The notes beneath the pieces are model-generated. The model worked only from the letters and a program-made list of their open reading frames with translations. It was not told the origin of the DNA and did not search any database. A program made the position numbers and the translations under genes. From an uncultured Gammaproteobacteria bacterium (GTDB taxonomy: Bacteria; Patescibacteriota; Patescibacteriia; Magasanikbacterales; UBA922), in the NCBI GenBank assembly GCA_964345045.1, contig CAYFPM010000001.1:108215-172214 (forward strand): a stretch of DNA of 64,000 bases, read 5' to 3'. Of the stretch, positions 1 through 64,000 are shown in pieces. Numbering within the stretch: position 1 is the stretch's first letter; every line of letters starts with the position of its first letter.

Positions 1-885
1 TCGGAAAACGAAGTTAATATCCACAAAGAAGTTTGCAAGGCTCTTGGTCTAAAGGGAAGAATTTTGATGAATGAAGATGGAATAAACGGAACCGTTGGTG
101 GTAGAAAAGAAGCTATAGAAATGTATAAAAGCTACATGGACAATCATAAGATTTTTAAAAATATTGATTGGAAAGAAAGTACTAGTGAAATTGAGCCATT
201 TCCAAAATTGAGAGTACGCTATAGAAAAGAAATTATTACCACAGACGCCAAAGAAGATATAGATATTTGTGCCAGAGGCAACCATGTAGATAGAGACACT
301 TTTCATGGGTGGTTGAAAAATAACGAAGACATGGTGATACTCGATATGCGCAATGATTATGAATGGGAAATTGGCAGATTTGTAAATTCAGTTCGTCCAC
401 CAATGAAATATTTTCGTGATCTAAAGGACAACATGGATTTTTATGATCAATTCAAAGATAAAAAAATTGTAATGTTTTGTACAGGAGGAATTCGTTGTGA
501 ACCGGCTAGTGCTTATTTTATTGCCAAAGGTTTTGATCCCAAAAATCTTTATCAACTAGAAGGTGGAATTGTAAAGTACGCCGAGAAGTATGGTAACGAA
601 GGTTATTACGAAGGTAAATGTTTTGTGTTTGACGAACGTTTGGCTGTGCCGGTAGACACTAGTGAAAACGCCAAGATTATTGGGAACTGTTTACACTGCA
701 ATAATTCTTGCGATGTGTATCGCAATTGTGCCAACCGTAATTGCAACCAGCTTTTTATTGGTTGCAACGAGTGTACAATTGAATTTGAAAATACTTGTTC
801 GGCAGAATGCCAAGCTGTAATAAAAAATCCAGCCGAGATAAGACCTCCTAGAGTTGGGGCAAAAGTGTTGCATAGGAATAAATAA
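1..885 (+). CDS. trhO: tRNA uridine(34) hydroxylase TrhO (rhodanese domain; 5' end truncated by window edge)
   Basis: Frame 1 reads through from base 1 (..KEVCKALGLKGRILMNEDGINGTV..). Rhodanese active-site loop CTGGIRCE and a C-terminal Cys-rich tail typical of YceA/TrhO are present. Confidence 0.7.
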   Translation, partial: SENEVNIHKEVCKALGLKGRILMNEDGINGTVGGRKEAIEMYKSYMDNHKIFKNIDWKESTSEIEPFPKLRVRYRKEIITTDAKEDIDICARGNHVDRDTFHGWLKNNEDMVILDMRNDYEWEIGRFVNSVRPPMKYFRDLKDNMDFYDQFKDKKIVMFCTGGIRCEPASAYFIAKGFDPKNLYQLEGGIVKYAEKYGNEGYYEGKCFVFDERLAVPVDTSENAKIIGNCLHCNNSCDVYRNCANRNCNQLFIGCNECTIEFENTCSAECQAVIKNPAEIRPPRVGAKVLHRNK

Positions 886-890
886 TATTT

Positions 891-989
891 CTCCCCCTAT
901 TAGGGGGAGCTCGCCTGCCCCGATCGAAGCATCGGGGAGGGGGTCTGGAATAAGATTTGACCCCACCTAACCTCCCCTGATAGGGGAGG
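891..989. repeat. Composite GC-rich hairpin repeat (CTCCCCCTATTAGGGGGAG ... CCTCCCCTGATAGGGGAGG); 77-nt core has an inverted copy at 50324-50400
   Basis: Reverse complement of 50324-50400 aligns to 891-967 with few mismatches. The small palindromes are visible directly. Confidence 0.8.
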
Positions 990-1018
990 AAAAAAAAATC
1001 CGCTTTACGGATTTTTTT
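990..1018. terminator. Bidirectional intrinsic terminator between trhO (+) and rpmB (-)
   Basis: AAAAATCCG-CTTTAC-GGATTTTTTT hairpin flanked by A-run and T-run. Confidence 0.6.
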
Positions 1019-1049
1019 GTTACATGCTGCGTGTTACAGGCTACATGCT

Positions 1050-1214
1050 TTAGGCGGCTTGTTTGGCCAAGGTGCGGATGCATTTGGTGCATACAAGCAT
1101 ATTGCCCATTTTTTGTACGTTTACATTTTGGCGACGTAAGGTTTTGTTTTTGGCGTGGCTGCGGTTGGCAGCTTTTTGAGAACCTTTGTCGCATCTTTCA
1201 CATTTTTTGGCCAT
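1050..1214 (-). CDS. rpmB: 50S ribosomal protein L28
   Basis: Internal start MAKKCERCDKGSQKAANRSHAKNKTLRRQNVNVQK matches the L28 family. The longer 69-aa ORF has a non-conserved N-terminus. TATAAT lies 3 nt upstream of the ATG on the minus strand. Confidence 0.75.
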   Translation of the reverse strand: MAKKCERCDKGSQKAANRSHAKNKTLRRQNVNVQKMGNMLVCTKCIRTLAKQAA

Positions 1215-1405
1215 AGGATTATAGAGGCTAGAAAGGCTGGAGAGGCTATATATGCCCAAACAGCTTATTTACACTTTGATATAAATTATGAATGCATATA
1301 TAATATGCAAATACAGTGAAGCGATTATATATTGTAAACGCTGACTTGTCAAGTGTAAGCCTCTCAAGCCTCTTTGGCTGCTTTAGCTTCTTAAGCCTTT
1401 TTCTC

Positions 1406-2026
1406 ATGTCTTTCTTACCCCTTATATTCTTCTTTATTGTTATTATCCCCTCGGCGATCCTGCACGAGTATATGCATGGTTGGGTAGCCGACCAGCTAGG
1501 AGACCCTACGGCTAGGTATGCTGGCCGCCTTACTCTAGATCCTAGATCTCATATAGATCCTATGGGTACTTTTATTATGCCAATTGCTTTGTTTTTGCTT
1601 AGTGGTGGTAGTTTTATGTTTGCCTATGCCAAGCCGGTTCCCTACAATCCATTCAATTTGCGTGCTGGCAGATGGGGGCCACTATACGTGGCTGTTGCCG
1701 GTCCATTATCCAATTTTTTATTAGCTTTTGTATTTGGGCTTATTATTCAATTTGTACCGGTTTCTGCCAGTTTGGCTTCTGTACTTTCTATTATTGTGTA
1801 TGCCAATGTTTTGCTCGGCGTGTTTAACTTGGTTCCAATTCCACCGCTCGACGGCTCCAAAGTTTTATTTGCCTTACTCCCAGACTCAGCTTATCGTATC
1901 AAAGCTGGGCTAGAGCGTTATGGTTTTGTAATTCTTATTTTCTTTGTTTTCTTTTTCTTTCGTATTATTAGTCCAATTATAAATTATCTTTTTTATCTTT
2001 TTACCGGTGGAGTAGGAGGATTCTGA
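1406..2026 (+). CDS. Zinc metalloprotease, peptidase M50 (site-2 protease) family; possible longer form from GTG 1316
   Basis: HEYMHGW (HExxH) lies in the first TM segment and an LDG motif (PPLDGSKV) is present downstream. The protein is polytopic and hydrophobic. Confidence 0.6.
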   Translation: MSFLPLIFFFIVIIPSAILHEYMHGWVADQLGDPTARYAGRLTLDPRSHIDPMGTFIMPIALFLLSGGSFMFAYAKPVPYNPFNLRAGRWGPLYVAVAGPLSNFLLAFVFGLIIQFVPVSASLASVLSIIVYANVLLGVFNLVPIPPLDGSKVLFALLPDSAYRIKAGLERYGFVILIFFVFFFFRIISPIINYLFYLFTGGVGGF

Positions 2027-2065
2027 TTTTGACGCATGACACTTGAAACTTGACACAATTTTGTC

Positions 2066-2132: not shown

Positions 2133-2441
2133 CTAGAGCTCTGTGAGGCGCCTTTGGATCTCTTCTAGTAGCAAGCGTGCTTTGCTGAAGTTGTAGCCGT
2201 GTGTTCTGGCAGCCTTTCGCGCCTTGTCGCTATTTGGATCACCTGCTATTGCGGCTTCGTAGCTAACTCCGGCAACCAGCGATGTTGTAGCTAGCTCACT
2301 AACCATGGCAGACAAGCTCATGGTTGAAAGTTGCCCTGGCACTTCTTGCTGGGCAGCTGCTGTGCCTGTGGTGTAGAAGTCACCTCTTAGGTATTCCAGA
2401 TCAGTTGAGTCTTGTTCAAAATCATCGGGCAATAGTCCCAT
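2133..2441 (-). CDS. Hypothetical protein (about 50% GC, strong AAGGAG RBS); island gene
   Basis: ORF with AAGGAG 7 nt upstream of the ATG. GC is far above the native background. No recognisable domain. Confidence 0.45.
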   Translation of the reverse strand: MGLLPDDFEQDSTDLEYLRGDFYTTGTAAAQQEVPGQLSTMSLSAMVSELATTSLVAGVSYEAAIAGDPNSDKARKAARTHGYNFSKARLLLEEIQRRLTEL

Positions 2442-3214: not shown

Positions 3215-3934
3215 TCAGCCCTCGACGTCGAGGTAGCTGGGTTCGTCCTGCCCGGGGCGCGAGCGCGAGAAGAGCCAATCGATGCAGGGCTTGATGGCGC
3301 CCACCATCTTGGCTTCATCGAGCTGTCCCATGAAGCTGGGAATGCGGAACGAATACCCCGGCATAGGCAGACGAGAATCCGTAGTATTGTAGTTCCGTTC
3401 TTGCGTGGTGTTCAAGAGACCTGCCGTCCGAAATGAGTTCGCTCCTGGAGCAGACGCGAGCCCAATACGACCAAGGGGGCTACGGTGGGCCGTCTTTTTG
3501 ATCGCTTTGTGCTCCCATTTGAATTTGGCGACGAAGCGAATGTCTCGTTCGTCAATGGCGGAGTGTTGGATCGAGAGATCCACATTGTCCCAGTCGATGA
3601 GATCTCCAGCCGACTGGAGAGAGTCTGCTCCTTGATCGGCGGGGGTGCTTTCGGTTCCCACGGTGTAGAGGACTTTTCGACCATCCTCCATGAGCGAGAC
3701 CCTCACCCCCTTCTTGAGGGGGATCTGGGTTGTTGCCGAGAGGTGGTATTTCGGAGTCTCCTTGGTCGCGGTGACCAAGATCGCGCGGCCGTTATCGGCC
3801 GGGGACACCTGGATGTTTCCTTCCGGGATGTCCGCGAAGACGGTGATTTTCTCTCGGCACTGGTCGGCCGCCATCGAGGTGGTCGGGCTGAAGATGAATA
3901 GGCTCAAAAGAGCCAAAATCAGGCTACGATACAT
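3215..3934 (-). CDS. Secreted hypothetical protein (signal peptide; about 60% GC; AAGGAG RBS)
   Basis: N-terminal MYRSLILALLSLFIFSPTTSMA signal peptide. Strong SD is present. GC is far above the flanking DNA. Confidence 0.55.
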   Translation of the reverse strand: MYRSLILALLSLFIFSPTTSMAADQCREKITVFADIPEGNIQVSPADNGRAILVTATKETPKYHLSATTQIPLKKGVRVSLMEDGRKVLYTVGTESTPADQGADSLQSAGDLIDWDNVDLSIQHSAIDERDIRFVAKFKWEHKAIKKTAHRSPLGRIGLASAPGANSFRTAGLLNTTQERNYNTTDSRLPMPGYSFRIPSFMGQLDEAKMVGAIKPCIDWLFSRSRPGQDEPSYLDVEG

Positions 3935-4032
3935 CGTGTACTCCTTGCGGCCAAAGCCGCTTTGTTGCTTGCTTACTCCCCATCAAATAATGGCAGCTCG
4001 CAGCTAAAAAATATATCAGTAAAATAAGTTTT

Positions 4033-4249: not shown

Positions 4250-4337
4250 AAAGAAGCTGTAGAAGCCAGAAAGGCCAGAGAGGCTAGAATGCCTCTTAAG
4301 CCTCTTAAGCTTCTTAAGCCTCCCAAGCTTTTAATAT
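4250..4337 (+). promoter_or_regulatory. 95-bp periodic (9-nt) leader element abutting the rpsL start codon; copy 1
   Basis: AAGAAGCTGTAGAAGCCAGAAAG GCCAGAGAG GCTAGAATG CCTCTTAAG CCTCTTAAG CTTCTTAAG CCTCCCAAG CTTTTAATAT-ATG. About 90% identical to 4748-4843. Confidence 0.7.
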
Positions 4338-4757
4338 ATGCCAACAATGAATCAGGTGTTGCGCAAGGGCAGAAAGAAAAAGACTACCAAGTCAAAATCT
4401 CCTGCCATGCAATTCACCTACGACAGTTTGCACCGCAAGAAAACAGACTTGCGTAGAGGTGCTCCATTCAAAAGAGGTGTTTGTATCAAGGTAACAACCA
4501 AAACACCAAAAAAACCTAACTCTGCGTTGCGTAAGGTAGCTCGTGTCAGACTATCTAACGGAACCGAAGTTTGGGCTTATATCCCAGGTGAAGGACATGG
4601 ATTGCAAGAACACTCTGTAGTTCTAATCCGTGGAGGAAAAGTAAAAGACCTTCCAGGTGTAAAATATCATGTGGTTCGCGGTGTGTACGACACAACCGGA
4701 GTCGAGAATCGCAAACGTAGCCGTTCACTATACGGAACTAAGAAACCTAAATCATAA
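4338..4757 (+). CDS. rpsL: 30S ribosomal protein S12
   Basis: [14 protein letters not shown]...[11 protein letters not shown]...[25 protein letters not shown]. Canonical S12. Confidence 0.95.
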
Positions 4758-4843
4758 AGAAGCTGTAGAAGCCAGAAAGGCTAGAGAGGCTAAAAAGCCT
4801 CCTAAGCTTCTCAGGCCTCTTAAGCCTCTCAAGCTTTTAAAGT
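4748..4843 (+). promoter_or_regulatory. 95-bp periodic leader element abutting the rpsG start codon; copy 2
   Basis: Direct repeat of 4250-4337, ending AAGCTTTTAAAGT-ATGCCAAG. Confidence 0.7.
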
Positions 4844-5329
4844 ATGCCAAGAGGAAAAAGAATTCCGAAACGTGTAGTTTCTCCAGATTCAAGATACAAC
4901 AGTGTGCTTGTTTCCAAGTTCATTAATTTTGTAATGGAAAGAGGTAAAAAAACTGTAGCCGAAAAAATAGTGTACGGTGCTTTTGAAAAACTTGCCGAAA
5001 AGAAAAAAGGCGACGCTATTAAACTATTTGAACAAGTATTAGACATAATTAGACCACAAGTAGAGGTACGCTCTCGTAGAGTTGGTGGTGCCAACTACCA
5101 AGTACCTATGCCAGTAGCCAGTCATCGCCAAAACGCTTTGGCTTTTCGTTGGCTAGTAGGTGCTGCCAAAGCCAGAAGTGGCAAAACCATGCAAGACAAA
5201 CTAGCTATGGAAATGATGGATGTACTAGAAGGAACCGGTGGAGCTGTAAAGAAAAAAGAAGACGTCATTCGTATGGCCGAGGCCAACAAAGCCTTTGCCC
5301 ACTTCGCCAGATTTGGTGGCAGAAGATAA
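4844..5329 (+). CDS. rpsG: 30S ribosomal protein S7
   Basis: MPRGKRIPKRVV...VEVRSRRVGGANYQVP...AFAHF. Canonical S7. Confidence 0.95.
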   Translation: MPRGKRIPKRVVSPDSRYNSVLVSKFINFVMERGKKTVAEKIVYGAFEKLAEKKKGDAIKLFEQVLDIIRPQVEVRSRRVGGANYQVPMPVASHRQNALAFRWLVGAAKARSGKTMQDKLAMEMMDVLEGTGGAVKKKEDVIRMAEANKAFAHFARFGGRR

Positions 5330-5335
5330 TTAATA

Positions 5336-5427
5336 ATTAGTTCATCGCCAATAGCCAATAGTTAATAGTTATTAGATATAACTAAAACAAACGATTGGCT
5401 ATGAACGATGAACGATGAACTATTTAT
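5336..5427. repeat. Palindromic 90-nt intergenic element (AGTTCATCGCCAATAGCCAATAG ... ATTGGCTATGAACGATGAACT), family copy 1 of 4
   Basis: Long imperfect inverted repeat. Related copies at 24352-24458, 27318-27415 and 28912-28984. Confidence 0.75.
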
Positions 5428-7503
5428 ATGGCTAGAGAATATACCCTAGAAAAAACCCGCAACATCGGGATCATGGCGCATATCGACGCCGGAAAAACTA
5501 CTACCACCGAACGTGTCTTGTTTTATACTGGTAAAAAACACAAAATCGGTGAAACTCATGACGGTGAATCCGACATGGACTGGATGGAACAAGAAAAAGA
5601 GCGTGGTATTACTATTACTTCTGCTGCTACCACTTGTTTCTGGCAAAATAATCGTATCAACATTATCGATACTCCAGGTCACGTAGACTTTACTGTAGAA
5701 GTAGAGCGTTCACTACGTGTACTAGATGGTGCTTGTGCTGTTTTTGATGGTTCACAAGGTGTAGAACCACAAAGTGAAACCGTATGGCGCCAAGCCGACA
5801 AATACAAAGTACCTCGTATTTGTTTTGTAAACAAAATGGACAAAATGGGTGCAGATTTTTATATGAGTCTTAACTCAATTTTGGAACGTTTATCAGACAA
5901 AGCTGTTGCTATCCAACTTCCAATCGGAGCGGAAGGCGAATTTAGCGGTGTAATCGATCTTATCGAAAGAAAAGCTTCTAAATTTGAAGGCAACATGGGG
6001 ATCAATGTAGTAGAAATGGAAATCCCTGCCGACATGAAAGACCAAGTAGAAGAGTACCGTGCCAAAATGCTGGAAAAAGTAGCCGAAGCCGATGAAGAAA
6101 CCATGAATGCTTACCTAGAAAACGGTGACCTAACTACAGAACAAATCAAAGCTGCTATTAGAAAAATGGTAATTGCCGATGAACTTTATCCAGTATTATC
6201 TGGTTCTGCACTTGCCAACATTGGTGTACAAAAGATGCTAGATGCTGTTATCGATTACTTGCCATCTCCATTGGAAGTACCACCGCTAGAAGCAACTGAT
6301 GTAAATGACGAAAACAAAAAAGTAGAAATCAAACCAAGTGATGATGAAGCTTTTACTGCCTTGGCTTTCAAAATTGCTACTGATCCATACGTAGGAAAAT
6401 TGGCTTTTTTCCGTGTTTATTCTGGTTCTGTAAAAGCTGGTACCTATGTAGTAAACACTTCAACCGGTGCCAAAGAACGTATTGGTCGTATTGTTCGTCT
6501 ACATGCCAACAGCCGCGAAGAAGTAGACGAAGTATATGCTGGTGAGATTGCTGCTGCTATTGGTTTGAAATCTACCACTACCGGTAACACTCTTTGTGCC
6601 GAAAATCGTCAAGTAGTTTTGGAAAATATTAGTTTTCCAGAACCGGTTATCCATATTGCTATTGAACCAAACACCAAGCAAGATGCCGAAAAAATGAGTT
6701 TGGCTCTACAAAAATTGGCAGAAGAAGACCCAACCTTCAAGGTTCATACCGACGAAGAAACCATGCAAACTATTATTTCTGGAATGGGGGAACTTCACCT
6801 AGACATTATTGTAGATCGCATGAAACGTGAGTTTGGTGTAGAGGCCAATGTTGGTGCTCCGCAAGTAGCTTACAAAGAAACTATCCGTTCCGGTGCAGAA
6901 GGAGAAGGTAAATATGTAAAACAATCTGGTGGTCGTGGTCAATACGGTCACTGTTGGATCAAATTGGAACCAATGGAAGAAGGTGCAGACTTTGAATTCA
7001 TTGACGAAATCAAAGGTGGTACAATTCCAAAAGAATTTATTGGTCCTATCCAAAAAGGTATTAAAGAAGCTATGAGCAAAGGTATTGTAGCTGGTTACCA
7101 AATGGTAGATATCAAAGCTACAGTATACGATGGTAGTTACCATGATGTAGACTCTAGTGAAGTTGCCTTTAAAATGGCCGGATCTATGGCTTTTCAAGCT
7201 GCTGCCAAAAAAGCAGAACCTGTACTACTAGAACCGATCATGAAAGTAGAAGTAACTACTCCAGAAGAAAACATGGGAGACGTAATTGGAGACTTGTCTT
7301 CCAAACGTGGTCAAGTTCAAGAAATGACAGACCGTGGACAAAGCAAGGTAGTTCGTGCCGAAGTACCTTTGTCAGAAATGTTTGGTTATGTAACCAACCT
7401 ACGTAGTATGACCCAAGGTCGTGCCAGCTCCAACATGGAATTTTCTCACTACGCCGAATGTCCTAAAAACGTTGAGGCGCAGGTAGTAGAAGGTAAAAAG
7501 TAG
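5428..7503 (+). CDS. fusA: Elongation factor G
   Basis: [28 protein letters not shown]-motifs and a full-length EF-G architecture. Confidence 0.95.
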
Positions 7504-7674: not shown

Positions 7675-10600
7675 ATGTTTTCCAAACGTCTGGCTATCTT
7701 GGCCATTATAGGGGGTTTGGGGGGAGCGTTGCTAGGTTTTCAAGAATTAGCAAATGGTTTCACATTGGATTCTGGCAATACAGATCAAGTGAATCTTAAT
7801 ACCTTAAAATTTGATTCTGGCAAAAGTTCGGATATAACTGTTAACAGTCTTTTTTTGTTGGATAATTCGGAAAATGAAAAAGAAGATGAAAAATCTACTT
7901 TTGATACCAAAACAGAAGAAAAAGATGTAAGTAATTTTAGTATATTAAATTTTAATCAAAAATCTACAGAAACAGTTACTGCCACAGTAGATGTAAGTGA
8001 AAATTTTGCAAAAACAGAAGTGACAGATATTAATATTTTGGAACAAAAAAAAGAAGATGAAAAACAAGATCAAGATGAGGGTAGAGAGGATAGTTTGCTT
8101 ATAAAAACTACTCCAATTACTATTACCCCAATAAAGGTGGAGCCGGTGGAGCCTATAAAAAATATTGATGAGGATACCAAACAAAATGAACTACCAAAAA
8201 AAGAAGATCCAAAGGTAATTTCTGAACAGATTGAGACTAAGATTTCTGAGGAGGAAAAACCTGCCGATGCCACAGGCTCTGGCGCTGTGAAAGAAGAGAA
8301 AAAAAGTATTTTTAATATTTTTTCTCCAAAGGTAGACAAGGTTGATATTGAAGTAGAGTCCAAAAAAGATGCTAAAAAAGTAGAAGTAAAAACTTTGCCA
8401 GAAATAAAAGATACTCGTTTGCAAGTTGATTTTGAAATAGAAAAAAAAGAAGATGGATCTGTAAAAGTGGAAGGCTCTAAAGTAAGAACAAATTTGGAAA
8501 TTGCTATTGATAGTAAAGTAAAAGAATCTAACAAAGAAGATGCCCCAAAAGAAGAACAAGTTAAACCAAAAATACTTTCTCCAATCAAACCAACTCTTAT
8601 CAAAACCAAACAAGATCTTGGAACATATGCTGGAGATATTGCTGCTCGTGACACAGATGTAGAATCTGTAGAAATTGAAGAAGACACAGTAGAAGTGTCT
8701 TACAAAAAACCGGCCCGACTCTTTGGTATTTTCCCAACCAAAATAAAGGAAGACGTGGTTGTAAAAACAGATTCATTGGGTCGACCTGATGTAGAAGTAA
8801 AACGTCCTTGGTGGGCTATTTTCACTAGTGAAAAAGATAGTAAAGAAGAAGTAGCCGAAGATATAGAAAAGAGAGTTGGTTACACAGGTACAGGTGCTAG
8901 CAGCCAAGAATCTTCTGTAAGACTAGCTGGAATTCTTGGAGCCATTGATCGTACTATGAAGATTGGTAGTGACAAAGCTACTGGAATTGATGTGGTCTCT
9001 AGTGTAGAAGAAGGTTTGCCAGATAGAGATGACGTGCCAGAAGAAGGTGTACTTGTAAGTGATTTAGATGTCATGATGCGTCAAGCTTTCTTGGGGGACT
9101 TGTTTAATCGTCCTGGTTCTGGAAGCTCGGCTCATATTTTTATCGATCTGGCTATAGAAGGAACTTTTGGTAATTTTGCTTCGCAACAATTAAGTATTGC
9201 CAGCCGCACAGCCGGGGACAGTGGCGAATTTATTGTCGCTGGTATTGGCAGAGTATTGACCATGTTCAACGAAAGAGGACTTAGCCACCAGCATGATGCC
9301 TTCTTGCGTTCAGCTCTAGTACTAGAAGTCGCTAGAGCTATGAATGGAGACGCAGCTGCCGCAGCCTTTGTAAATCAGTATGCTAGTCAAATGAATAATT
9401 TATTGGCAAACAGTGGTGTGCCACTGACAACTTCTGCCAATGGAAATAGAACTTTGGTAAATTTTGCTGTTTGTTCTGGTGCCAATAGAGCTGGTTGTGT
9501 CGATGTCGCTACTCTACTTAGTTCACTTGGTGATCCTCGCTCACTTTCCAATTTGTGTGATCCAGGTAACATGGTGTTGAACGGAATTATGAATTTGGCT
9601 GGAGACGAAAGATATGGATGTGCTCCACCAACCGGAATGTGTGCTACTACCTTGGAAGGTGGTATTAACAATGGAGAAAACGTAGCTCCAGGATTACCAG
9701 GAATACAGCAACCAGAAAATGCCTTGGGACAATCGGATGTTCCAAATGGGGCACAAGGATTTTTGGAAGACCAAGGTATTACCGGTCAAGATTTGGAAAC
9801 CATCTGTGGAGCTCATGCTGCCGGAGCGCTGGGACTAGGCGGTGGAACACAAGAGTGTATAGAAAATGCAATTTCACAAATGGCCAGACAAGATCTGCTT
9901 GGTGCTGCTGGTATGGCTGGTTGTATGGCCGGAGCCCTAGGTCTAGAGCTAGGAGATGACCCAGCCATCGATAGAGTGATTGATGATGCCCTTAACAGTC
10001 GTGGTTGTGGAGACCTAGCCGCCGATGGAGAAAAGAAAGAAACTCCTCCAAAGGAAGAGAAAAAACCAGATCCTTCGAAAGAAACTGAGGAAAAAACTCC
10101 ACCACCAAAAGATAAAGAAGAACCAAAGAAAGAAGAAAAAGGATTTTTTGGTAAATTGTGGGATGCTGTTTTTGGTGGAGGTAATGATAAAAAACCAGGA
10201 GTAGAATTCCAATATGACAAAGAAGGAAAGTTAATTGGTGCAGAATCTGGAAATACAATAGTAAGACTTAATGAAGACGGTGAAGCAATAGTGGAAATAG
10301 GTGGTCAAAATGTAACTGTCGAAGGAAGCCAAAATGAATTGGAAGCTATATTAGACGCCATCGGAGGTGTTTATGATGGAGAAGGTGTAGGAAACATTGT
10401 AGATTATGATTCTACTGGAGAAATATACATTGGAGCACAAAGAGCCCTATTGAAGTTTAAAAATATTAGAGGTTCTTCGTTAGAGCCAAGCTCTGGTTGT
10501 AGCGAAGCTTTGCAAGCTCTAGAAGCAGCCTACACCCAATGTTCTGGCGACATTATAAACAATGCTGCTGCCGGAGCTGGTGTCCCAGGAGGTTCTCCTG

Positions 10601-11133
10601 CCGAAAGAATCGGACGAACTGCTCCAGGATCTAATCCTTTTGGTGGTAGACCAGGCGAGTATGGTGGCACTGCCGGAGCTACAGATCCAATCACTGCGTG
10701 TATGGAAGCCAATAGTTCTAGAACTCATGGTTCTGGTAACTGGGCCTCCAATGGAGGAGCTTGTGGCTTTATGGTTTGTGCCGATGGTACAGATAGTTGT
10801 TGTCAGGGAGCTGGTTTTGGCAATCAAGCAGCCGGAGAATTGCTTCGTGATTTACGAGATTGTACCGAAGTAATGTGTGTCCCAGGTGAGCCATGTCTTT
10901 GTGCTGGTGAACAAAGTACCGGAGAGTTACCAGAGATACCTATTTTTGGAGATGACGGTGGAGTAAATCCTGTAGCCAACGACAGTATTGCCCCAAACGA
11001 AGGTAGTTCGGCCAGAGGATTTTCTGAAACAGTTGGTAACACCAACTTTACAGGTTCTGTAGGAACTGGCTTTGGTGTGGGTTCTGGATCAAATCCAAGC
11101 CAGGAGCTAGACGGTGATGTAAATAGTAGATAA
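7675..11133 (+). CDS. Very large (1152 aa) predicted surface protein: N-terminal TM/signal, long K/E-rich low-complexity region, Gly/Cys-rich C-terminal region
   Basis: MFSKRLAILAIIGGLGGALLGF hydrophobic N-terminus. About 300 aa of KE-rich repeats. C-terminal half is rich in G, C, A and N with many CxxG/C patterns. Confidence 0.6.
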   Translation: MFSKRLAILAIIGGLGGALLGFQELANGFTLDSGNTDQVNLNTLKFDSGKSSDITVNSLFLLDNSENEKEDEKSTFDTKTEEKDVSNFSILNFNQKSTETVTATVDVSENFAKTEVTDINILEQKKEDEKQDQDEGREDSLLIKTTPITITPIKVEPVEPIKNIDEDTKQNELPKKEDPKVISEQIETKISEEEKPADATGSGAVKEEKKSIFNIFSPKVDKVDIEVESKKDAKKVEVKTLPEIKDTRLQVDFEIEKKEDGSVKVEGSKVRTNLEIAIDSKVKESNKEDAPKEEQVKPKILSPIKPTLIKTKQDLGTYAGDIAARDTDVESVEIEEDTVEVSYKKPARLFGIFPTKIKEDVVVKTDSLGRPDVEVKRPWWAIFTSEKDSKEEVAEDIEKRVGYTGTGASSQESSVRLAGILGAIDRTMKIGSDKATGIDVVSSVEEGLPDRDDVPEEGVLVSDLDVMMRQAFLGDLFNRPGSGSSAHIFIDLAIEGTFGNFASQQLSIASRTAGDSGEFIVAGIGRVLTMFNERGLSHQHDAFLRSALVLEVARAMNGDAAAAAFVNQYASQMNNLLANSGVPLTTSANGNRTLVNFAVCSGANRAGCVDVATLLSSLGDPRSLSNLCDPGNMVLNGIMNLAGDERYGCAPPTGMCATTLEGGINNGENVAPGLPGIQQPENALGQSDVPNGAQGFLEDQGITGQDLETICGAHAAGALGLGGGTQECIENAISQMARQDLLGAAGMAGCMAGALGLELGDDPAIDRVIDDALNSRGCGDLAADGEKKETPPKEEKKPDPSKETEEKTPPPKDKEEPKKEEKGFFGKLWDAVFGGGNDKKPGVEFQYDKEGKLIGAESGNTIVRLNEDGEAIVEIGGQNVTVEGSQNELEAILDAIGGVYDGEGVGNIVDYDSTGEIYIGAQRALLKFKNIRGSSLEPSSGCSEALQALEAAYTQCSGDIINNAAAGAGVPGGSPAERIGRTAPGSNPFGGRPGEYGGTAGATDPITACMEANSSRTHGSGNWASNGGACGFMVCADGTDSCCQGAGFGNQAAGELLRDLRDCTEVMCVPGEPCLCAGEQSTGELPEIPIFGDDGGVNPVANDSIAPNEGSSARGFSETVGNTNFTGSVGTGFGVGSGSNPSQELDGDVNSR

Positions 11134-11155
11134 TTAAATATTAAAGTTTAAGTAT

Positions 11156-11710
11156 ATGGAACATCCAAAAATTATACAGAAAATAAGTAAGCGCAATCTT
11201 TCACTAGCTGGTATTATTGCTGTAGTTGGTTTAGCCTCCCTTATTTTTGGTTTGCAATCCAGCATTGAATTGACCTTTGCCAGGTTCACTGTACCTCCAA
11301 TTTTGTTTGTGATTTTAGGTCTTGTTATTATCTTGGTAGCTATTGTTTGGGGTTTAATTGGTTTGAAATCAGAACATTGCGCAGAATGTAAATCAGAATT
11401 AACCTCTGAACAAGCTAGATTTGAATTTGAGGCTCAAAAAACTGTATTGGAAGCGATAAGTAAAAAGGAAGTCACTCTTCTTACCAGTTTGTCAATGGCC
11501 GAAGACCCGGGGAATGAAATTGAAATTGATTTTAACTATTGTAAAAAGTGTCATAACATTGGACAGGTAGAAGTAAATCGTCGCGAAGAATGGAATCCAG
11601 ACAATTTATTGCCAGAAGAAAATGTAGATAACAAAGATTTTATAAAATCTTTGGGAAAAATTACAGAAGAACAAGAAAAATTAAGAGAAGAAATGGAAGA
11701 TGATGAATAG
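11156..11710 (+). CDS. Membrane protein with two TM helices and a CxxC...CxxC zinc-ribbon-like segment
   Basis: Hydrophobic helices at about 15-70. Motifs CAECK and CKKCH. Acidic C-terminus. Confidence 0.45.
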   Translation: MEHPKIIQKISKRNLSLAGIIAVVGLASLIFGLQSSIELTFARFTVPPILFVILGLVIILVAIVWGLIGLKSEHCAECKSELTSEQARFEFEAQKTVLEAISKKEVTLLTSLSMAEDPGNEIEIDFNYCKKCHNIGQVEVNRREEWNPDNLLPEENVDNKDFIKSLGKITEEQEKLREEMEDDE

Positions 11711-11752
11711 AAAAAATATTAATTTATTTATTTACTTTAATTAATGTAATTT

Positions 11753-12223
11753 ATGAAGAAAATAATTGGAGTTGCTTTGGTAACACTTAGTATGGTTCTT
11801 TTTTTGAGTGGCTGTGCTGTAGGAGAAACAGGTAAACATAATACTTTGGTGGACAAATTAGATGCTGTAGTATCTGCAGACCAGGTATTTTATGGAGAAT
11901 TAGAAAATTATGAACTAGGAGGAGACACTAGTGCTTTAAGAACATCTTTTGATTCTTTCAAAGTTGCTACTGTTGAGTTGGATACTTTTTTTTCAGAGAC
12001 AAAACTTGATAAAGCCCAAGAATCTTTTCAGATAGAGTATGACGTTATTTACAAAAAAGCAGTGGATAGTTATCTATCCAAAGCAGAAGAAGTTGTAGAG
12101 GCTATAGAATCTGGAGTAAATGAGGAAGAGCTTAATGTTTTGTTTGAAGAGATTGTAGAACCAGCTAATGATTTTATAGAAGCAGATAATTCTATGACAG
12201 AGGCTATAAATAAGCAGGCTTAA
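11753..12223 (+). CDS. Putative lipoprotein
   Basis: Signal peptide with lipobox LFLSGC. Confidence 0.5.
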   Translation: MKKIIGVALVTLSMVLFLSGCAVGETGKHNTLVDKLDAVVSADQVFYGELENYELGGDTSALRTSFDSFKVATVELDTFFSETKLDKAQESFQIEYDVIYKKAVDSYLSKAEEVVEAIESGVNEEELNVLFEEIVEPANDFIEADNSMTEAINKQA

Positions 12224-12233
12224 TATACTAAGT

Positions 12234-12266
12234 TAAAAAAAGAACCTTCAAAAGGTTCTTTTTTGT
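12234..12266 (+). terminator. Intrinsic terminator
   Basis: AAAAAAAGAACCTTC-AAAA-GGTTCTTTTTTG. Confidence 0.7.
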
Positions 12267-12330
12267 TTTTTTACAGTTTTTTGTATAAATGCTATTATTA
12301 TACTAATAATTTTTTAAACATCATGAATAT

Positions 12331-20808: not shown

Positions 20809-20817
20809 ATATTGTGA

Positions 20818-47806: not shown

Positions 47807-48058
47807 TCAGTAGAATGCTATCATGCCGCCACCGTTGCAGATGGCTGTGGCAGAGATACCTTCTGCGCGTAGTGCAGCCGCTTGTGCTTCGAAGTCTTGC
47901 TCTGGCCACTCGCGAGTCTGAGACATCTCCCTCGCTTCTTCGACGCCTCTTTGTCGGCGAGCGTGATCTTTTGCCTCGCTGATTCTCAAGCTGAGTTCTA
48001 ACACTATTGCCAGAATCGAAAGGGCTACATTGAGCCATAGACCAACAATAAGTATCAT
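47807..48058 (-). CDS. GC-rich small membrane protein (83 aa) with GGAGGTG RBS; island gene next to tRNA-Leu
   Basis: N-terminal TM (MILIVGLWLNVALSILAIVL). Strong SD. About 55% GC. Confidence 0.5.
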   Translation of the reverse strand: MILIVGLWLNVALSILAIVLELSLRISEAKDHARRQRGVEEAREMSQTREWPEQDFEAQAAALRAEGISATAICNGGGMIAFY

Positions 48059-48131
48059 CGCACCTCCGTTTAGTTATTTTAGATAATATTTTAGAAAAAG
48101 GCAATTGATAGTATTTAAGAGAGGTTATGTT

Positions 48132-48187: not shown

Positions 48188-48259
48188 CCCAGCCTGCGGC
48201 TGATGACTCGTAGGGTCAGAACTCTTTAATTATTCTATTTTGGATTACGTTTTTTATAG

Positions 48260-48341
48260 TGCCCGAGGAGAGAATCGAACTCTCACTCCCGAAGGAACAC
48301 GATTTTGAGTCGTGCGCGTCTACCAGTTCCGCCACTCGGGC
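48260..48341 (-). tRNA. tRNA-Leu (anticodon CAA), type II with long variable arm; CCA not encoded
   Basis: Minus-strand GCCCGAGTGGCGGAACTGGTAGACGCGCACGACTCAAAATCGTGTTCCTTCGGGAGTGAGAGTTCGATTCTCTCCTCGGGCACT folds into a cloverleaf with a GTTCGATTC T-loop. Confidence 0.8.
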
Positions 48342-48551: not shown

Positions 48552-49319
48552 ATGAGTAGAATAATCGCCATTGTAAATCAAAAAGGTGGAGTAGGCAAAA
48601 CTACCACAGCCATGAATTTGGCTGCTTTTTTGGCCGAAATGGGCAAATTTGTTTTGCTGGTAGATATGGATCCACAGGGCAATGCTACCAGCGGTTTGGG
48701 ATTGGCAAAAGAAGAATTAAACCATGGGATCTACGAAGCTTTGTCCAAACAAAAGAGATTTCATGATATTGTAAACAACACTCTACACGAAGGTTTGCGA
48801 ATTGCGCCAGCTACAACAAATTTGGCAGGTGCCAATGTAGAATTGGTAGATATGGAAAGAAGAGAACATCAGTTACACGATCTTTTGCAAGAAGCCAAAC
48901 ATGCTTATGATTATATTATTATAGATTGTCCCCCATCTCTTGGGTTGCTTACAATAAATAGTTTGGTTGCAGCAGACGATATCTTGATTCCGGTGCAAGC
49001 AGAATATTATGCTCTAGAAGGGATTAGCCAACTTTTAAATACCATCAACTTGATTCAAGAACATATCAAACCAGATCTAAATGTGATTGGAGCTGTAATT
49101 ACCATGTTTGATAAACGCACCAAGCTTTCGGAAGATATTATGAACGAGCTTTACAAATATTTTCCAGATACAATTTTTCGCAGTGTAATTCCTAGAACTG
49201 TTCGTTTGGCCGAAGCTCCTAGTTTTGGTCAATCAATTTTGCATTATGATCCAAAAGGCAAAGGAGCTAGAGCTTATGAGCGCTTGGCCAAAGAACTTTT
49301 GGAAAAATATGAATATTAA
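48552..49319 (+). CDS. parA: Chromosome partitioning ATPase ParA/Soj
   Basis: MSRIIAIVNQKGGVGKTTTAMNLAAFLA (deviant Walker A). Confidence 0.9.
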   Translation: MSRIIAIVNQKGGVGKTTTAMNLAAFLAEMGKFVLLVDMDPQGNATSGLGLAKEELNHGIYEALSKQKRFHDIVNNTLHEGLRIAPATTNLAGANVELVDMERREHQLHDLLQEAKHAYDYIIIDCPPSLGLLTINSLVAADDILIPVQAEYYALEGISQLLNTINLIQEHIKPDLNVIGAVITMFDKRTKLSEDIMNELYKYFPDTIFRSVIPRTVRLAEAPSFGQSILHYDPKGKGARAYERLAKELLEKYEY

Positions 49320-50251: not shown

Positions 50252-50261
50252 GTGTTGATAA

Positions 50262-50405
50262 AATTCCTCCCCTATGAAGGGAGGTTAGCCCGCCTGCATT
50301 GCTTTGCGAAGCATTGCGGGCAGGGTGGGGTCAAATTTTATACCAGACCCTCTCCCCGATGCTTCGATCGGGGCAGGCCAGCTCCCCCTGATAGGGGGAG
50401 AGTTT
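50262..50405. repeat. Composite GC-rich hairpin repeat; 50324-50400 is the inverted copy of 891-967
   Basis: TCCTCCCCTATGAAGGGAGG ... CTCCCCCTGATAGGGGGAG. Reverse-complement identity with 891-967. Confidence 0.8.
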
Positions 50406-50437
50406 TTTAATAAAGCGAAGATTGCCTTGGGGAGGGG

Positions 50438-56753: not shown

Positions 56754-56852
56754 AAATGATAGTAAATAGTAATTAGTAAACGGTAAATTGAGTTATGTAC
56801 GAATTACGAATTGACGAATGATTTTTTTGTTACAACATAGCTTTTAATTTAT

Positions 56853-59977: not shown

Positions 59978-61486
59978 TTATTCTTCAAAATTTTCTCCCA
60001 ATATTATTAATATATCGGTTGTGCTGGTGGCAGCTTCTCCCTCTGGGATAGTTTGTTTTACAGGTATGCCCAAAGAATTTTTTAAAATTTCTAATACATC
60101 TGGAGCAGAAATATCCGACACTACATAGATTCCACTTTGGGAGATGGGTCTTTCATTTGTATTCCCAATGTTAGAAACAGTTACTTCTTTGTTGATTAAT
60201 CTTTGTCTAATTCTAGCGGCCATACCAGCTTGCCAGGTTCCATTTAAAACTTCAACTTTGGCCGGAGTTAGAGCTGGGATATCTTGATTTGGGGTAGTGT
60301 CTGGAGTTTCTTCTACAATTACAAAAACTTCGTCAATCATTTTGTTTATGTCGTCAAAGTTACCGGTTTTTGGTTTTAGGATAAAGGCACCTTCTTTGGT
60401 AAAACCGCTATTCAAAAATCCATCTTGGCTACTGTCTATAACTGTACTTGAAAGTTTTATCATTTCCATGTCTTTGGCCAATCGGATAAAAGATATAATA
60501 TCGGAAAAAGATAAATTGGTTTGCATGTGACTACCTAAGGATTTTATAATGCCACTAAGCTTGATGGGATTGGCCAAAGTTTGAAAAGAAGTTAATTTTT
60601 CTTTTAGGGCCAAGATTACTTTTTGTTGTCTTTTGGCACGGGCAAAATCCGAACCTTCGTGGTTGTTGCCATGACGTGAACGAGCATATTGCAAAGCTCT
60701 GTCTCCATCCATAGTCTCGATCCCTTTTTGGAATCGAACAGTTTGGTAAGTGTCGTTTATGTCTGGATATTCTATATCTGTAAAAGATCTTTCTACATCT
60801 ATTTTTACGCCACCTACCACATCTACTATTTCGGCAAAAGCTTTGAAGTCGACTCGGATATAATAGGGAATTTCTACATCAAAAGTATCTTCTACTACTG
60901 TTACAGCTAGCTTAGCTCCATCTCCTGGGTTGTCGGCCTCGCCAAAGGCATTGGCATGATTAATTTTGTTCCAACCGTGACCAGGTATTTTTACTCCCAA
61001 GTCTCGGGGTATAGAAACCATGGCTACTTGGCTAGTAGAAGGTTTTATACTAGCGAGGATCATAGTATCTGTAAGAAATGGTCCATCGTGGCCTAGTCCG
61101 CCCATGCCTAAGAGAAGTATATTGATACGATCATCTTTTTGGCCATCTAACTTTGGTTCTGGTTTGAAAATGTGGGTAATTTTTTGGAAAAATCCTTCTG
61201 GTTTTTTGGTTTCCAAAGTAGTGGGATCGTAAATATTTGGGTCGTTTACATTTTGGTTGCCAAAAGCTCCTTTTAGTTGACCAAAGGCGACAAAGACAAA
61301 AAATAATAGGGCAAAAATAAAGACAACCCGGCTAATTTTTTTGCGGGTATTTTTTTGTTGCTTATCTTTTTCTAGAAAATTTACCGATTGCCTCTCGGCT
61401 ATAGTACCGAATTGTCTGGTTTTTCTTGGAGAGTTTGTATCGGGAATATTTCTATTTTGCGAATTGTTGGGAGTGTTTGGCTCCAT
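59978..61486 (-). CDS. LytR-CpsA-Psr (LCP) family cell-envelope phosphotransferase
   Basis: N-terminal TM. LCP core INILLLGMGG...TDTMILASI...VSIPRD. C-terminal LytR_C-like region. Confidence 0.8.
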   Translation of the reverse strand: MEPNTPNNSQNRNIPDTNSPRKTRQFGTIAERQSVNFLEKDKQQKNTRKKISRVVFIFALLFFVFVAFGQLKGAFGNQNVNDPNIYDPTTLETKKPEGFFQKITHIFKPEPKLDGQKDDRINILLLGMGGLGHDGPFLTDTMILASIKPSTSQVAMVSIPRDLGVKIPGHGWNKINHANAFGEADNPGDGAKLAVTVVEDTFDVEIPYYIRVDFKAFAEIVDVVGGVKIDVERSFTDIEYPDINDTYQTVRFQKGIETMDGDRALQYARSRHGNNHEGSDFARAKRQQKVILALKEKLTSFQTLANPIKLSGIIKSLGSHMQTNLSFSDIISFIRLAKDMEMIKLSSTVIDSSQDGFLNSGFTKEGAFILKPKTGNFDDINKMIDEVFVIVEETPDTTPNQDIPALTPAKVEVLNGTWQAGMAARIRQRLINKEVTVSNIGNTNERPISQSGIYVVSDISAPDVLEILKNSLGIPVKQTIPEGEAATSTTDILIILGENFEE

Positions 61487-62188: not shown

Positions 62189-62260
62189 GCCCCTGTAGTT
62201 TAATGGATAAAACAACGGCTTGCGGAGCCGTCGATCTAGGTTCGATTCCTGGTGGGGGCA
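62189..62260 (+). tRNA. tRNA-Arg (anticodon reads GCG); CCA not encoded
   Basis: GCCCCTGTAGTTTAATGGATAAAACAACGGCTTGCGGAGCCGTCGATCTAGGTTCGATTCCTGGTGGGGGCA. Cloverleaf with a GTTCGATTC T-loop and a 5-bp anticodon stem ACGGC/GCCGT. Confidence 0.7.
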
Positions 62261-62269
62261 CAATGTAAA

Positions 62270-62451
62270 AATTATTTATCTAGGTTCTGCCCCTTTGGGG
62301 CATCCGCCTGAGGCGGAGATTCCTAGCGAGAGCACAGAAAAACGCCCATTGTGGCGTTTTTTGTTTTGTTAGAGATTCTCACCCTTCGGGTGATCCGCCG
62401 AAGGCGGGTTGGTGGGGGCACAAATTTAACCAGCCAATTTGGCTGGTTTTT
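62270..62451 (+). repeat. Degenerate tRNA-Arg-derived segment: CTAGGTTC and TGGTGGGGGCACA (62410-62422) repeats, two CCGCC...GGCGG hairpins and two terminator-like hairpins
   Basis: 13-nt identity with the tRNA-Arg 3' end. AAAAACGCCCATTGTGGCGTTTTTT and AACCAGCCAATTTGGCTGGTTTTT. Confidence 0.6.
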
Positions 62452-62561
62452 GGTAGCTAAAATTTATATATAATACTTGACCCTTAATAACAAAAATGAT
62501 ATACAAAATTTGTAGATAGTCTGTCTACAAATTTGTTCATTCTTACCCTAGGAGGGGAAAG

Positions 62562-63140
62562 ATGTTAGTCGTAGAAAAAAAATTTCCAGTGGTGTACAGT
62601 CTTCTCGATGGTAAAGTCACTGAGATTCACTCGGAATGGGTGCGGCTGGAAGAGCTGGCTGCCATGGTGGGTATGCCTCCTCGGAAGGTTTTCAAGGCCT
62701 TCCGTCTGCTTGCACATATCAGCCAAATAGCCGGTAAGGTCCCGGTTCTACACTGGGCGACAGAAGATGGATTTTGTTGCGACCTCGGTATGCAAGACGG
62801 TCACCCAGATCCGGAAGCACATCAGTTCAATGGGCTATACGTGCCCAGCAGCTGGGTTCACAAGGTGCTCGAGGCCGTGAAATACGAAGTCACCAAACTC
62901 AAAATAGTCGAAATGAAAGTAGATGGAGAACATGAAAATACCGGTGTAGGGTATCAAAGGTGGATTCCGCCTGGGGTTGCACGAGTGTTGGATTCTACCG
63001 TTGACTCGGGTAGTACCAATTGCCGGTTCGTCATGGCCTATACAGGCTCTAGAGGGCAAACACCATTGTCTCCGGATCGCTCTCATTTCATGAGAAAGGG
63101 GACTAGTTATCAGGTTCTACGAAACAACAAAGAGGTTTAG
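62562..63140 (+). CDS. GC-rich hypothetical protein (GGAGGGG RBS) downstream of the tRNA-Arg scar; island gene
   Basis: 192-aa ORF, about 53% GC, strong SD. No known domain. Confidence 0.5.
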   Translation: MLVVEKKFPVVYSLLDGKVTEIHSEWVRLEELAAMVGMPPRKVFKAFRLLAHISQIAGKVPVLHWATEDGFCCDLGMQDGHPDPEAHQFNGLYVPSSWVHKVLEAVKYEVTKLKIVEMKVDGEHENTGVGYQRWIPPGVARVLDSTVDSGSTNCRFVMAYTGSRGQTPLSPDRSHFMRKGTSYQVLRNNKEV

Positions 63141-63224
63141 TCTGGTTTTTTACTTTTTTGATTTGAAGGGGAGAATCCCATGTAGATCAATTTGTTCTAG
63201 TACAATCCAGACAATCACAAAAGT

Positions 63225-63250
63225 CCATCATTTAAAATGGTGGTTTTTTG
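63225..63250 (+). terminator. Intrinsic terminator
   Basis: CCATCATTTAAAATGGTGG followed by TTTTTTG. Confidence 0.55.
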
Positions 63251-63265
63251 TTTGTATTTTTTTAT

Positions 63266-63793
63266 TTATGCTTTGAGGTAGTTAAGCATAGTATCGACAT
63301 CGGAAATTTCGAATGGATCGGTTGGGCAGTTGTCTCCAAAACCTGGTTCAATAAAGGCTTGTTTGATTTGACCATCTTCTATATACAAACTATATCTCCA
63401 AGATCTTTTGCCAAAGCCTAGATTTTCTTTTTTTACCATCATGCCAAGAGCTTCGGTAAATTCACACGAACCATCTGGAATTAATTTTACTTTTTTTACA
63501 CCTTGGTCTTTGCCCCAAGCATTCATTACAAAAGCGTCGTTTACAGAGATACAATAAACTTCGTCAACACCAGCTTCTTTTAGTTCTTCGTATTTGGTTT
63601 CGTAGCCTGGCAAATGAGTAGAAGAACAAGTAGGAGTAAAGGCTCCTGGCAATCCAAATAGGACTACTTTTTTGCCAGCAAATAATTCGTCGGAAGTAGT
63701 ATCTTTCCAATCTATTGTGCCAGATTCGTCTTTGGTTCTCATTTTAAAAGTTACAGATGGGATTTGTTTCCCAACTAGATTTTTGCTTTCCAT
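63266..63793 (-). CDS. Peroxiredoxin, Prx5-like (AhpC/TSA family)
   Basis: Peroxidatic Cys context GLPGAFTPTCSSTHLPGY. Confidence 0.8.
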   Translation of the reverse strand: MESKNLVGKQIPSVTFKMRTKDESGTIDWKDTTSDELFAGKKVVLFGLPGAFTPTCSSTHLPGYETKYEELKEAGVDEVYCISVNDAFVMNAWGKDQGVKKVKLIPDGSCEFTEALGMMVKKENLGFGKRSWRYSLYIEDGQIKQAFIEPGFGDNCPTDPFEISDVDTMLNYLKA

Positions 63794-63929
63794 ATATTAT
63801 TTAGTTAATTACATTTAGTTGTGAGAGAGTGAATTATACCCTAAAAAATAAAAGAGACAAAACTGCTGGAATTTTCATATAAAATGTTATAAAATTAGTA
63901 CAACCAGTTGGCAGTATCCCTGTAGCAAC

Positions 63930-64000
63930 TGGAGGATCTTACGTTGGTTTCGACGTAGAAAGGCGAGCCATAATGTCTGAAATTCCTGAAGACCAAGATC
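63930..64000 (+). ncRNA. ssrA: Possible 5' end of tmRNA (ssrA), truncated by the window edge
   Basis: GGAGGATCTTACGTTGGTTTCGACGTAG resembles the tmRNA 5' acceptor/P2 region (GGGG..CGUUACGGAUUCGAC). Weak, partial. Confidence 0.25.

Follow-up and report, generated by a model that had tools for sequence, protein, structure and literature searches.

Shine-Dalgarno-less UAUG starts of native genes and probable import of GC-rich, Shine-Dalgarno-led genes in a Magasanikbacteria-like genome

Background

How does an organism choose its translation starts when nearly all of its genes are without a Shine-Dalgarno (SD) motif, and what are the genes among them that carry strong ones? The question is raised by a stretch of 64,000 nucleotides (nt), hereafter the window, of contig CAYFPM010000001.1 (GenBank assembly GCA_964345045.1, positions 108,215 to 172,214). 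A preliminary description of this DNA had contrasted native genes without SD motifs with "island" open reading frames (ORFs), rich in GC and all said to have one, had taken the motif as a marker of foreign origin, and had asked how the often near-leaderless native mRNAs are initiated. Here we compare both classes of starts in the window, on adjoining DNA and in related genomes. The reading that we favour, at a probability of roughly 0.68, is that native genes start at SD-less UAUG sites, and that the GC-rich, SD-led genes were imported together with the initiation dialect of their donors.

The window has an overall GC content of 38.9%. In a scan of GTDB genomes with its asparaginyl-tRNA synthetase (AsnRS), the closest sequences were those of Candidatus Magasanikbacteria and other Patescibacteria metagenome-assembled genomes, at 60-73% identity, and the organism is shown to be a Magasanikbacteria-like member of the Patescibacteria, or candidate phyla radiation (CPR).

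Results

Independent gene calls, Pfam matches and knowledge of protein N-termini gave a table of 69 genes, made up of 61 curated native genes and eight GC-rich ORFs. The 22 nt upstream of each start were paired with the window's own 16S tail (GAUCACCUCCUUUCU) by RNA duplexfold, and a site was called SD-like when its free energy (dG) was at or below -7.5 kcal/mol. Such a site precedes only one of the 61 native genes but all eight GC-rich ORFs (Fisher 1.1e-9; Mann-Whitney 3e-6); the native median dG is -1.7 kcal/mol, against -7.9 to -13.2 kcal/mol in the eight. Since the threshold is reached by 7.8% of random 22-mers from native DNA and by 17.8% of those from island DNA, GC content does not account for eight sites out of eight (0.178^8, or about 1e-6). 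At its 3' tail (GGATCACCTCCTTTCT, 17809-17824, plus strand), the 16S rRNA indeed keeps the anti-SD core CCTCC (CCUCC) at 17815-17819, as had been claimed, and the motifs reported for seven GC-rich ORFs are all present, 2-9 nt from the start, in the form of AAGGAG, GGGAGG, AAGGAGG, GGAGGTG or AGGAGG. The statement that every GC-rich ORF has an SD is true of all eight, including one at 32485-33456 that was absent from the earlier list, but its wording was loose, as one of the genes (38349-38705) has a GC content of 41%. The sole native SD, AAGGAG with a spacer of 13 nt before the S11 peptidase gene at 46276, falls within the 3' end of scpB; the aligned starts in the two comparable relatives have none, and we rejected it as a chance match.

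A second contrast lies directly before the start codon. T stands at -1 in 56 of the 61 native genes, a count that follows two start shifts based on N-termini (rpsS to 24461, ruvX to 35523), and in none of the eight GC-rich genes, six of which have G and two C. In the background, T precedes 26% of all ATG trinucleotides, which gives the native count a binomial P of 3e-27. In the position matrix of the 61 native starts, T(-1) reaches 90% and 1.2 bits, whereas no other upstream position exceeds 0.3 bit of Kullback-Leibler (KL) divergence, including positions -3, -6, -12 and -13, where A occurs at 44-56%. Native start regions also fold weakly, at -5.0 kcal/mol compared with -8.4 in internal windows (Wilcoxon 2e-6) and -10.7 at island starts. 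Native starts are thus marked by a near-invariant U 5' of AUG (UAUG) in an A/U-rich, G-poor and weakly folded context. As T(-1) is also found in 25 of the 27 operon-internal native genes, which lie at most 45 nt and in many cases 1-12 nt from the gene upstream, it must be a translational signal.

Automatic calls placed four native starts too far upstream, namely those of rpsJ (20833 for 20866), rplC (21558 for 21570), rpsS (24428 for 24461) and ruvX (35481 for 35523). The conserved N-termini of all four proteins match downstream TATG sites, and the restart of ruvX at 35523 also abolishes a 41-nt overlap with map.

Both contrasts extend along the contig beyond the window, where five further GC-rich genes (GCS2 a, b and c, hyp104 and hyp147) have an SD and no T(-1), and the native neighbours (rhodanese, M20 peptidase, radA and recG) show the opposite pattern. 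A sixth GC-rich gene outside the window, hyp149 (L002), has no strong SD at its called start (dG -3.8). The three divergent GCS2 (PF04107) genes, each led by an SD, belong to a cluster with 57-59% GC that spans at least 5 kb and lies about 1.4-6.8 kb ahead of the first window position (15318-20720 of L001; L numbers designate the loci fetched for comparison). Among the GC-rich or ORFan genes scored on the contig, 14 out of 15 have an SD-like site (13 out of 14 without the gene of 41% GC), with spacers mostly of 6-9 nt.

The native pattern is not peculiar to this genome. Window proteins were used to anchor 190 starts by homology in about 25 related genomes (loci L008-L045), and among these an SD occurs once (0.5%) and T(-1) 180 times (94.7%); in loci with 56-63% GC, T(-1) is found at 100%. 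A cruder rule that takes the first ATG gives T(-1) frequencies of 0.65-1.0 in Magasanikbacteria-like loci, against 0.15-0.4 at internal ATGs. In about 40 related loci the share of ORFs with an SD near the candidate start equals that at internal control sites. In contrast, outgroup loci from Cloacimonadota and Peribacteria use SDs, clearly so in Cloacimonadota, and have T(-1) at only 0.13-0.30; asnS, for example, has an SD in the outgroups and none in Patescibacteria. The absence of SDs from native starts, which the preliminary description had presented for this DNA, is a lineage-wide trait. Loss of the anti-SD motif in about half of Parcubacteria has been published (PMC9297842); in the literature searched, no account of the start contexts of mRNAs from this radiation was found.

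Unusual initiator tRNAs occur in related, T(-1)-using loci. Seven initiator-type tRNA-Met genes (L058 19282-19357 and L053 9202-9276, both on the minus strand; L061 20661-20736; L063 21164-21239; L064 18308-18383; L071 18628-18703; L083 16151-16225) encode the anticodon loop C32-C33-CAU-A37-A38 (CCCAUAA), whereas the elongator tRNA-Met genes of those same loci have the usual U33. The A37 that accompanies C33 was read in the DNA of these relatives. More than 120 further C33 initiators were found in metagenome contigs (loci L088-L207); the 55 independent contigs of sufficient length gave pooled first-ATG values of 0.61 for T(-1) and 0.13 for SD, in a comparison confined to C33 carriers. In most of the 55, starts are rich in T(-1) and poor in SDs, and a few contigs use SD.

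The eight GC-rich genes, all ORFans, look like real genes. Their GC is higher at first than at second codon positions (GC1 > GC2) in 8/8, as expected for coding sequence, and their GC at third positions (GC3) is 0.38-0.71, compared with 0.28 for pooled native genes; seven of them have a GC content of 0.49-0.58 and a GC3 of 0.49-0.71, with 38349 intermediate. Promoter-like sites in AT-rich flanks and terminator-like hairpins were seen near each window island examined. The translations show a signal peptide or lipobox in three island proteins, and in another an N-terminal hydrophobic helix.

The first of these genes (2133-2463, coding sequence (CDS) 2133-2441, minus strand; 102 aa) has AAGGAG at 2450-2455 with a spacer of 8 nt, G at -1 and a dG of -8.3; its GC1/2/3 is 0.59/0.46/0.49. 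Close to it on the same strand, 3215-3956 (CDS 3215-3934; 239 aa with an N-terminal signal peptide; GC3 0.71) has AAGGAG at 3941-3946, spacer 6, G at -1 and dG -7.9, and was recovered in contigs of two sequencing runs that had been assembled independently. The eighth gene, newly added, is 32485-33478 (CDS 32485-33456, minus strand; 323 aa with a lipoprotein-like N-terminus, ..ITSGC), between secY and hyp98/adk, with AAGGA at 33464-33468, spacer 7, C at -1 and dG -13.2; it is flanked by a bidirectional terminator-like hairpin at 32366-32390 and a promoter-like site at 33522-33494. Two lie between recO and asnS: the island 36820-38060 (CDS 36892-37911, minus strand; 339 aa with a signal peptide; GC3 0.69) has GGGAGG at 37920-37925, spacer 8, C at -1 and dG -13.2, and 38327-38705 (CDS 38349-38705, plus strand; 118 aa), the gene of 41% GC and possibly an older, partly ameliorated import, has AAGGAG at 38334-38339, spacer 9 and G at -1. 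At the rsmB-aspS junction, 42207-42690 (CDS 42229-42690, plus strand; 153 aa) has AAGGAGG at 42216-42222, spacer 6, G at -1 and dG -12.2. The last two adjoin tRNA genes: 47807-48080 (CDS 47807-48058, minus strand; 83 aa, with a hydrophobic helix at the N-terminus), which some 200 bp separate from tRNA-Leu(CAA) at 48259-48341, has GGAGGTG at 48061-48067, spacer 2, G at -1 and dG -13.2, and 62540-63140 (CDS 62562-63140, plus strand; 192 aa), downstream of tRNA-Arg(GCG) at 62189-62261, has AGGAGG at 62550-62555, spacer 6, G at -1 and dG -11.3.

No match to any of the eight proteins was found in Pfam, PHROG or PADLOC, and there is no paralogy among the window islands. The seven proteins looked up, that of 2133-2441 included, are singleton clusters, and that of 32485 is a one-member self-cluster; among 5.8e9 clusters, 36892 and 32485 match only themselves. 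A phmmer search of 36892 against 1.84e9 representatives gave one further match only, a 1307-aa repeat protein, which was rejected as spurious because its pairwise alignments are weak (23-27% identity, best E 2e-5) and its score is summed over 10 repeats. IMG/VR pattern scans (36892 and 3215), a phage tblastn (3215) and a plasmid tblastn (36892) were all empty.

Across Magasanikbacteria the genes from secY to topA keep a conserved order, and against this order four of the eight islands stand at three junctions that measure less than 200 bp in most relatives. Between secY and adk the window has 1611 bp, where 6 of 14 relatives have 106-253 bp and the others do not exceed 822 bp. Between recO and asnS it has 2062 bp, where 16 of 24 relatives have less than 150 bp. 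Its rsmB-aspS gap of 1783 bp compares with one of about 110-220 bp for three of the nine relatives. This comparison covers four of the eight genes, three other sites being outside the fetched loci; 47807 lies between the S11 peptidase gene and parA, in a region whose length varies among relatives (216-3117 bp). None of the island genes has an orthologue in about 40 related loci. At recO-asnS (36775-38836, set against L010-L013), a tRNA-Asn gene is found in several relatives, and the window has no tRNA there and two SD-led ORFans instead.

GC-rich and mostly SD-led ORFs recur at the same kind of places in relatives, at secY-adk in L016, recO-asnS in L042, rsmB-aspS in L011 and L031, and relA-topA in L009. 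Of the 17 such GC3 outliers in relatives, 53% are led by a strong SD, compared with 12% for internal control sites of the same ORFs, and T(-1) occurs in just two. They show no homology to each other or to the window islands, and eight of the ten tested lack Pfam domains, the one in L042 having a real domain. Since AT-rich accessory genes without SD also occur in such gaps, for example an M78 peptidase gene and hyp120 at 41256-42124, the junctions are general variable sites, at which the GC-rich SD-led genes represent one kind of cargo among others.

Discussion

Foreign origin best fits the eight GC-rich ORFs, because composition, both initiation signals, synteny and uniqueness agree. The proposal that an SD marks foreign genes in this DNA is supported by GC3, by the lack of T(-1) (0/8 against 56/61), by synteny and by the lack of orthologues and homologues. 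The ORFs would be single-gene imports from one or more GC-richer, SD-using donors whose dialect they keep, with a strong SD at 6-9 nt and no U at -1. Their un-ameliorated GC3 argues for a recent arrival, and the absence of any donor-like sequence suggests that the source has been poorly sampled, as may be the case for viruses or mobile elements of other hosts. As the 16S rRNA keeps CCUCC, they can probably be translated through classical SD pairing, on which they would depend more than native genes do, their GC-rich start regions being more structured.

Like known genomic islands and integration hotspots, they have atypical GC and codon use, occupy variable junctions between operons, adjoin tRNA genes in two of eight cases and are mostly ORFans. 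They differ in being mostly single genes of 0.3-1.2 kb without a visible integrase, transposase or direct repeat, in having undetectable donors, and in that the diagnostic contrast here lies in the translation-initiation signals.

Several points weigh against the favoured reading. No donor was found, and a set of about 15 billion proteins, which includes assemblies of the same samples, contains no credible homologue of the two largest island proteins; the GCS2 genes failed as a clue to the donor, their best relatives being just 26-31% identical. The gene calls contain no integrase or transposase domain, and no flanking direct repeat was seen, although repeats were not searched systematically. 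On the native side of the reading, four or five C33 contigs (L090, L091, L098, L116 and L149) use SD and not T(-1), so C33 is not sufficient for T(-1), and none of the initiator tRNAs in the fetched loci comes from the window organism or from Magasanikbacteria proper.

The precedent of the Bacteroidia also counts against this reading. They retain the anti-SD and yet fail to recognise SDs (PMC7797042, PMC6847099); with the motif sequestered, their ribosomes are blind to SDs (PMC7797042). The proteins of the sequestering pocket are bS21, bS18 and bS6, whose genes (rpsU, rpsR and rpsF) lie outside the window. Likewise, the islands may have been imported and their SDs be inert relics, the anti-SD being sequestered on the 30S platform and the genes translated poorly or not at all. 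We consider this unlikely, but it has to be taken seriously. The un-ameliorated GC3 suits it, since the SDs may not have decayed yet, and the loss of the anti-SD in about half of Parcubacteria (PMC9297842) shows that the interaction is dispensable in the radiation. However, the SD-like sites of the 14 contig genes include that of the partly ameliorated 38349, and promoter-like and terminator-like sites stand near each window island examined. Moreover, SD-like sequence is rarer before native starts than in the background: it precedes one of 61 starts in the window, and for the 1/190 of the relatives, set against a background of 7.8%, P is 3e-6. This hints that the anti-SD is accessible.

It could also be argued that the GC-rich SD-led ORFs are native and form a fast-evolving accessory class, for instance of secreted host-interaction proteins, translated through a separate SD-dependent channel. 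The recurrence of such mostly Pfam-less genes across many related genomes, the signal peptides or lipobox of several of them and the lack of donor homologues are in keeping with this idea. Nevertheless, we find it improbable: a GC3 of 0.6-0.7 would not persist in a native gene under the AT-biased mutation of the lineage, the genes are unrelated between genomes and absent from the syntenic sites of most relatives, and they lack the T(-1) that is kept at 100% even in relatives of 56-63% GC.

A further alternative concerns T(-1) itself, which could stem from transcription if most mRNAs were leaderless and T(-1)/A(+1) reflected the pyrimidine-purine start preference of RNA polymerase. The impression of very short leaders in the preliminary description would favour this, as would a LytR-family gene (59978-61486) with a -10-like box 9 nt from its ATG. 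But T(-1) is present inside operons, where genes separated by 1-12 nt share the same start context, and the position matrix shows no -10 signal at a fixed distance, its KL values being low everywhere but at -1. A leaderless-type -10 box, about 6-8 nt before the start, is not the pattern here: in first-in-operon genes, the -10-like hexamers are concentrated 20-34 nt ahead of the ATG, as in TTGTCA-17-TATAGT before hyp98 and in the box 25 nt before the ATG of asnS. We therefore rejected leaderless transcription as the source of T(-1), which on these grounds is very improbable, and the mRNAs do not appear to be near-leaderless as had been supposed. From the clustering of the hexamers, leaders of about 15-30 nt are predicted.

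Some leaders contain repeats. A 9-nt tandem repeat, AAGCCTCTT, occurs in 3-4 copies in the leaders of rpsL (4291-4334), rpsG (4795-4834) and an M50 peptidase gene (1357-1396); AAGCYTCYYAAGC has 11 matches where about one is expected. The AAGCCTCTT repeat is pyrimidine-rich and resembles the anti-SD strand, not the SD. Other leader repeats are GATTGGC/GAACGAT before fusA (5395-5427), rpsS (24410-24433), rplX (27380-27417) and rplF (28945-28986), and TTCGTA(A/C) before recO (35950-35983) and hyp225 (about 56755-56800). A dispersed repeat of the CPR type, ...CTCGCAATGACAG, stands before map (about 34690-34715) and scpB (45680-45706) and yields spurious antisense ORFs, such as 34521-34805.

That the GC-rich pieces are assembly chimeras, or their ORFs chance frames in GC-rich non-coding DNA, can hardly be credited: such DNA does give long ORFs in several frames, homologues are lacking and a single-sequence AlphaFold model of 36892 has low confidence (pLDDT 42), but the same DNA was recovered in ENA assemblies of two runs (ERR2281802/3), where the overlap of about 58 kb with the ENA contig shows 31 mismatches, as well as in Logan assemblies, and the proteins are also recorded for an NCBI contig of 621 kb (621,257 bp), while each island sits exactly between native genes with GC1 > GC2, a correctly spaced SD and ATG and, in some, a signal peptide, and the neighbouring GC-rich cluster and L042 carry real Pfam domains.

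How the native mRNAs are initiated is a question to which the near-invariant U(-1) is a candidate answer. Pairing of U(-1) with A37 of the initiator tRNA was demonstrated in E. coli with compensatory tRNA mutations and about 45,000 mRNA variants, where its effect is small, and earlier chloroplast work is cited in the same paper (PMC10018350). In the organism studied here, U(-1) would most likely pair with A37 to give a four-base codon-anticodon interaction, and the modest effect known from E. coli and chloroplasts would be raised to the main determinant of the start site, together with the open A/U-rich context. The base listed for bacterial initiators at position 33 is U, and the formation of t6A37 by EcTsaBCDE is prevented by C33 (PMC8887486). 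In the initiators of the relatives, C33 would in this way leave A37 free to pair. It is thus conceivable, although we advance it only tentatively and hold it doubtful as a whole, that in a large branch of Patescibacteria comprising Magasanikbacteria, Uhrbacteria and their relatives UAUG replaced SD pairing and is read by a C33 initiator with an unmodified A37, the anti-SD being kept mainly as a second channel for captured SD-led genes, so that one ribosome would serve two dialects.

The elements of this proposal have partial parallels. Like the Bacteroidia (Flavobacterium johnsoniae; PMC6847099, PMC7797042), the lineage has almost no native SDs, keeps the anti-SD and has A/U-rich, weakly structured starts. 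The Bacteroidia, however, favour A at -3, -6, -12 and -13 and have no reported U(-1) rule, whereas T(-1) is the sole strong position here. The quadruplet pairing of E. coli (PMC10018350) shares the U 5' of the start codon and the A37, which is found in the initiators of the relatives, but it is a modest modulation without a strong genomic bias; here U(-1) reaches 92-95%, SDs are absent, and the relatives' initiators also carry C33. The anti-SD loss in part of the Parcubacteria (PMC9297842) concerns the same radiation and shows that SD pairing is dispensable in CPR; that study examined the rRNA motif and not mRNA start contexts, its passages that were searched hold nothing on T(-1) or SD-bearing foreign genes, and the present case differs in that this genome retains the anti-SD. 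Finally, C33 is a feature of eukaryotic cytoplasmic initiators (PMC8887486), to which the C32-C33-CAU-A37-A38 loop of the T(-1)-using Patescibacteria is similar, but the tRNAs of these relatives are otherwise of the bacterial type, with a C1:A72 or A1:A72 mismatch.

Other features of the window

The window contains rpsL-rpsG-fusA (4338-7503, plus strand), without SD and with T at -1; the 16S rRNA gene (16329-17822); and the block from tuf through the S10 and spc operons to secY (19618-32330, plus strand), with tuf, 20 ribosomal-protein genes and secY, often separated by 1-12 nt. This block has no SD, and T is at -1 in every gene once the rpsS start is set to 24461. Past secY follow adk, map, ruvX, recO, asnS, rsmB, aspS, scpAB, parAB, relA, topA, dprA, pth and der. 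The gene for uL30 is absent between rpsE and rplO (29951-30992), and the 16S rRNA gene (Rfam SSU match 16329-17822) is solitary, with no 23S gene in the next 46 kb; both traits are usual in CPR genomes.

Between fusA and trmD (7675-15048), four successive genes of native composition encode proteins of 1152, 184, 156 and 905 aa without Pfam match, all of which have N-terminal hydrophobic segments. The parA gene (48552-49319) is whole in the window (255 aa), and the call on the ENA contig (L006 15556-16323) consists of two 118-aa pieces, although the 21.8-kb stretch that bears parA shows only three mismatches between the two. The convergent parB-relA spacer (50252-50437, 186 bp) has 54% GC, against roughly 30% for the same spacer in relatives.

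Conclusions

Start choice without SD is an open problem in much of bacterial diversity, and a near-invariant U(-1) would offer a simple and testable start rule for a whole uncultured radiation. It has a practical side, as Prodigal-type calls miss or misplace starts here, as with rpsS, ruvX, rpsJ and rplC. The rule would also tie start choice to a mechanism so far held to be a minor modulator in E. coli. Conversely, the combination of an SD with the lack of T(-1) may serve as a sharp, composition-independent marker of foreign genes, applicable even to the partly ameliorated 38349. This signature would expose a steady inflow of genes that are unique and in many cases secreted into the tiny genomes of symbionts, and may bear on why the anti-SD persists in lineages that hardly use the SD.

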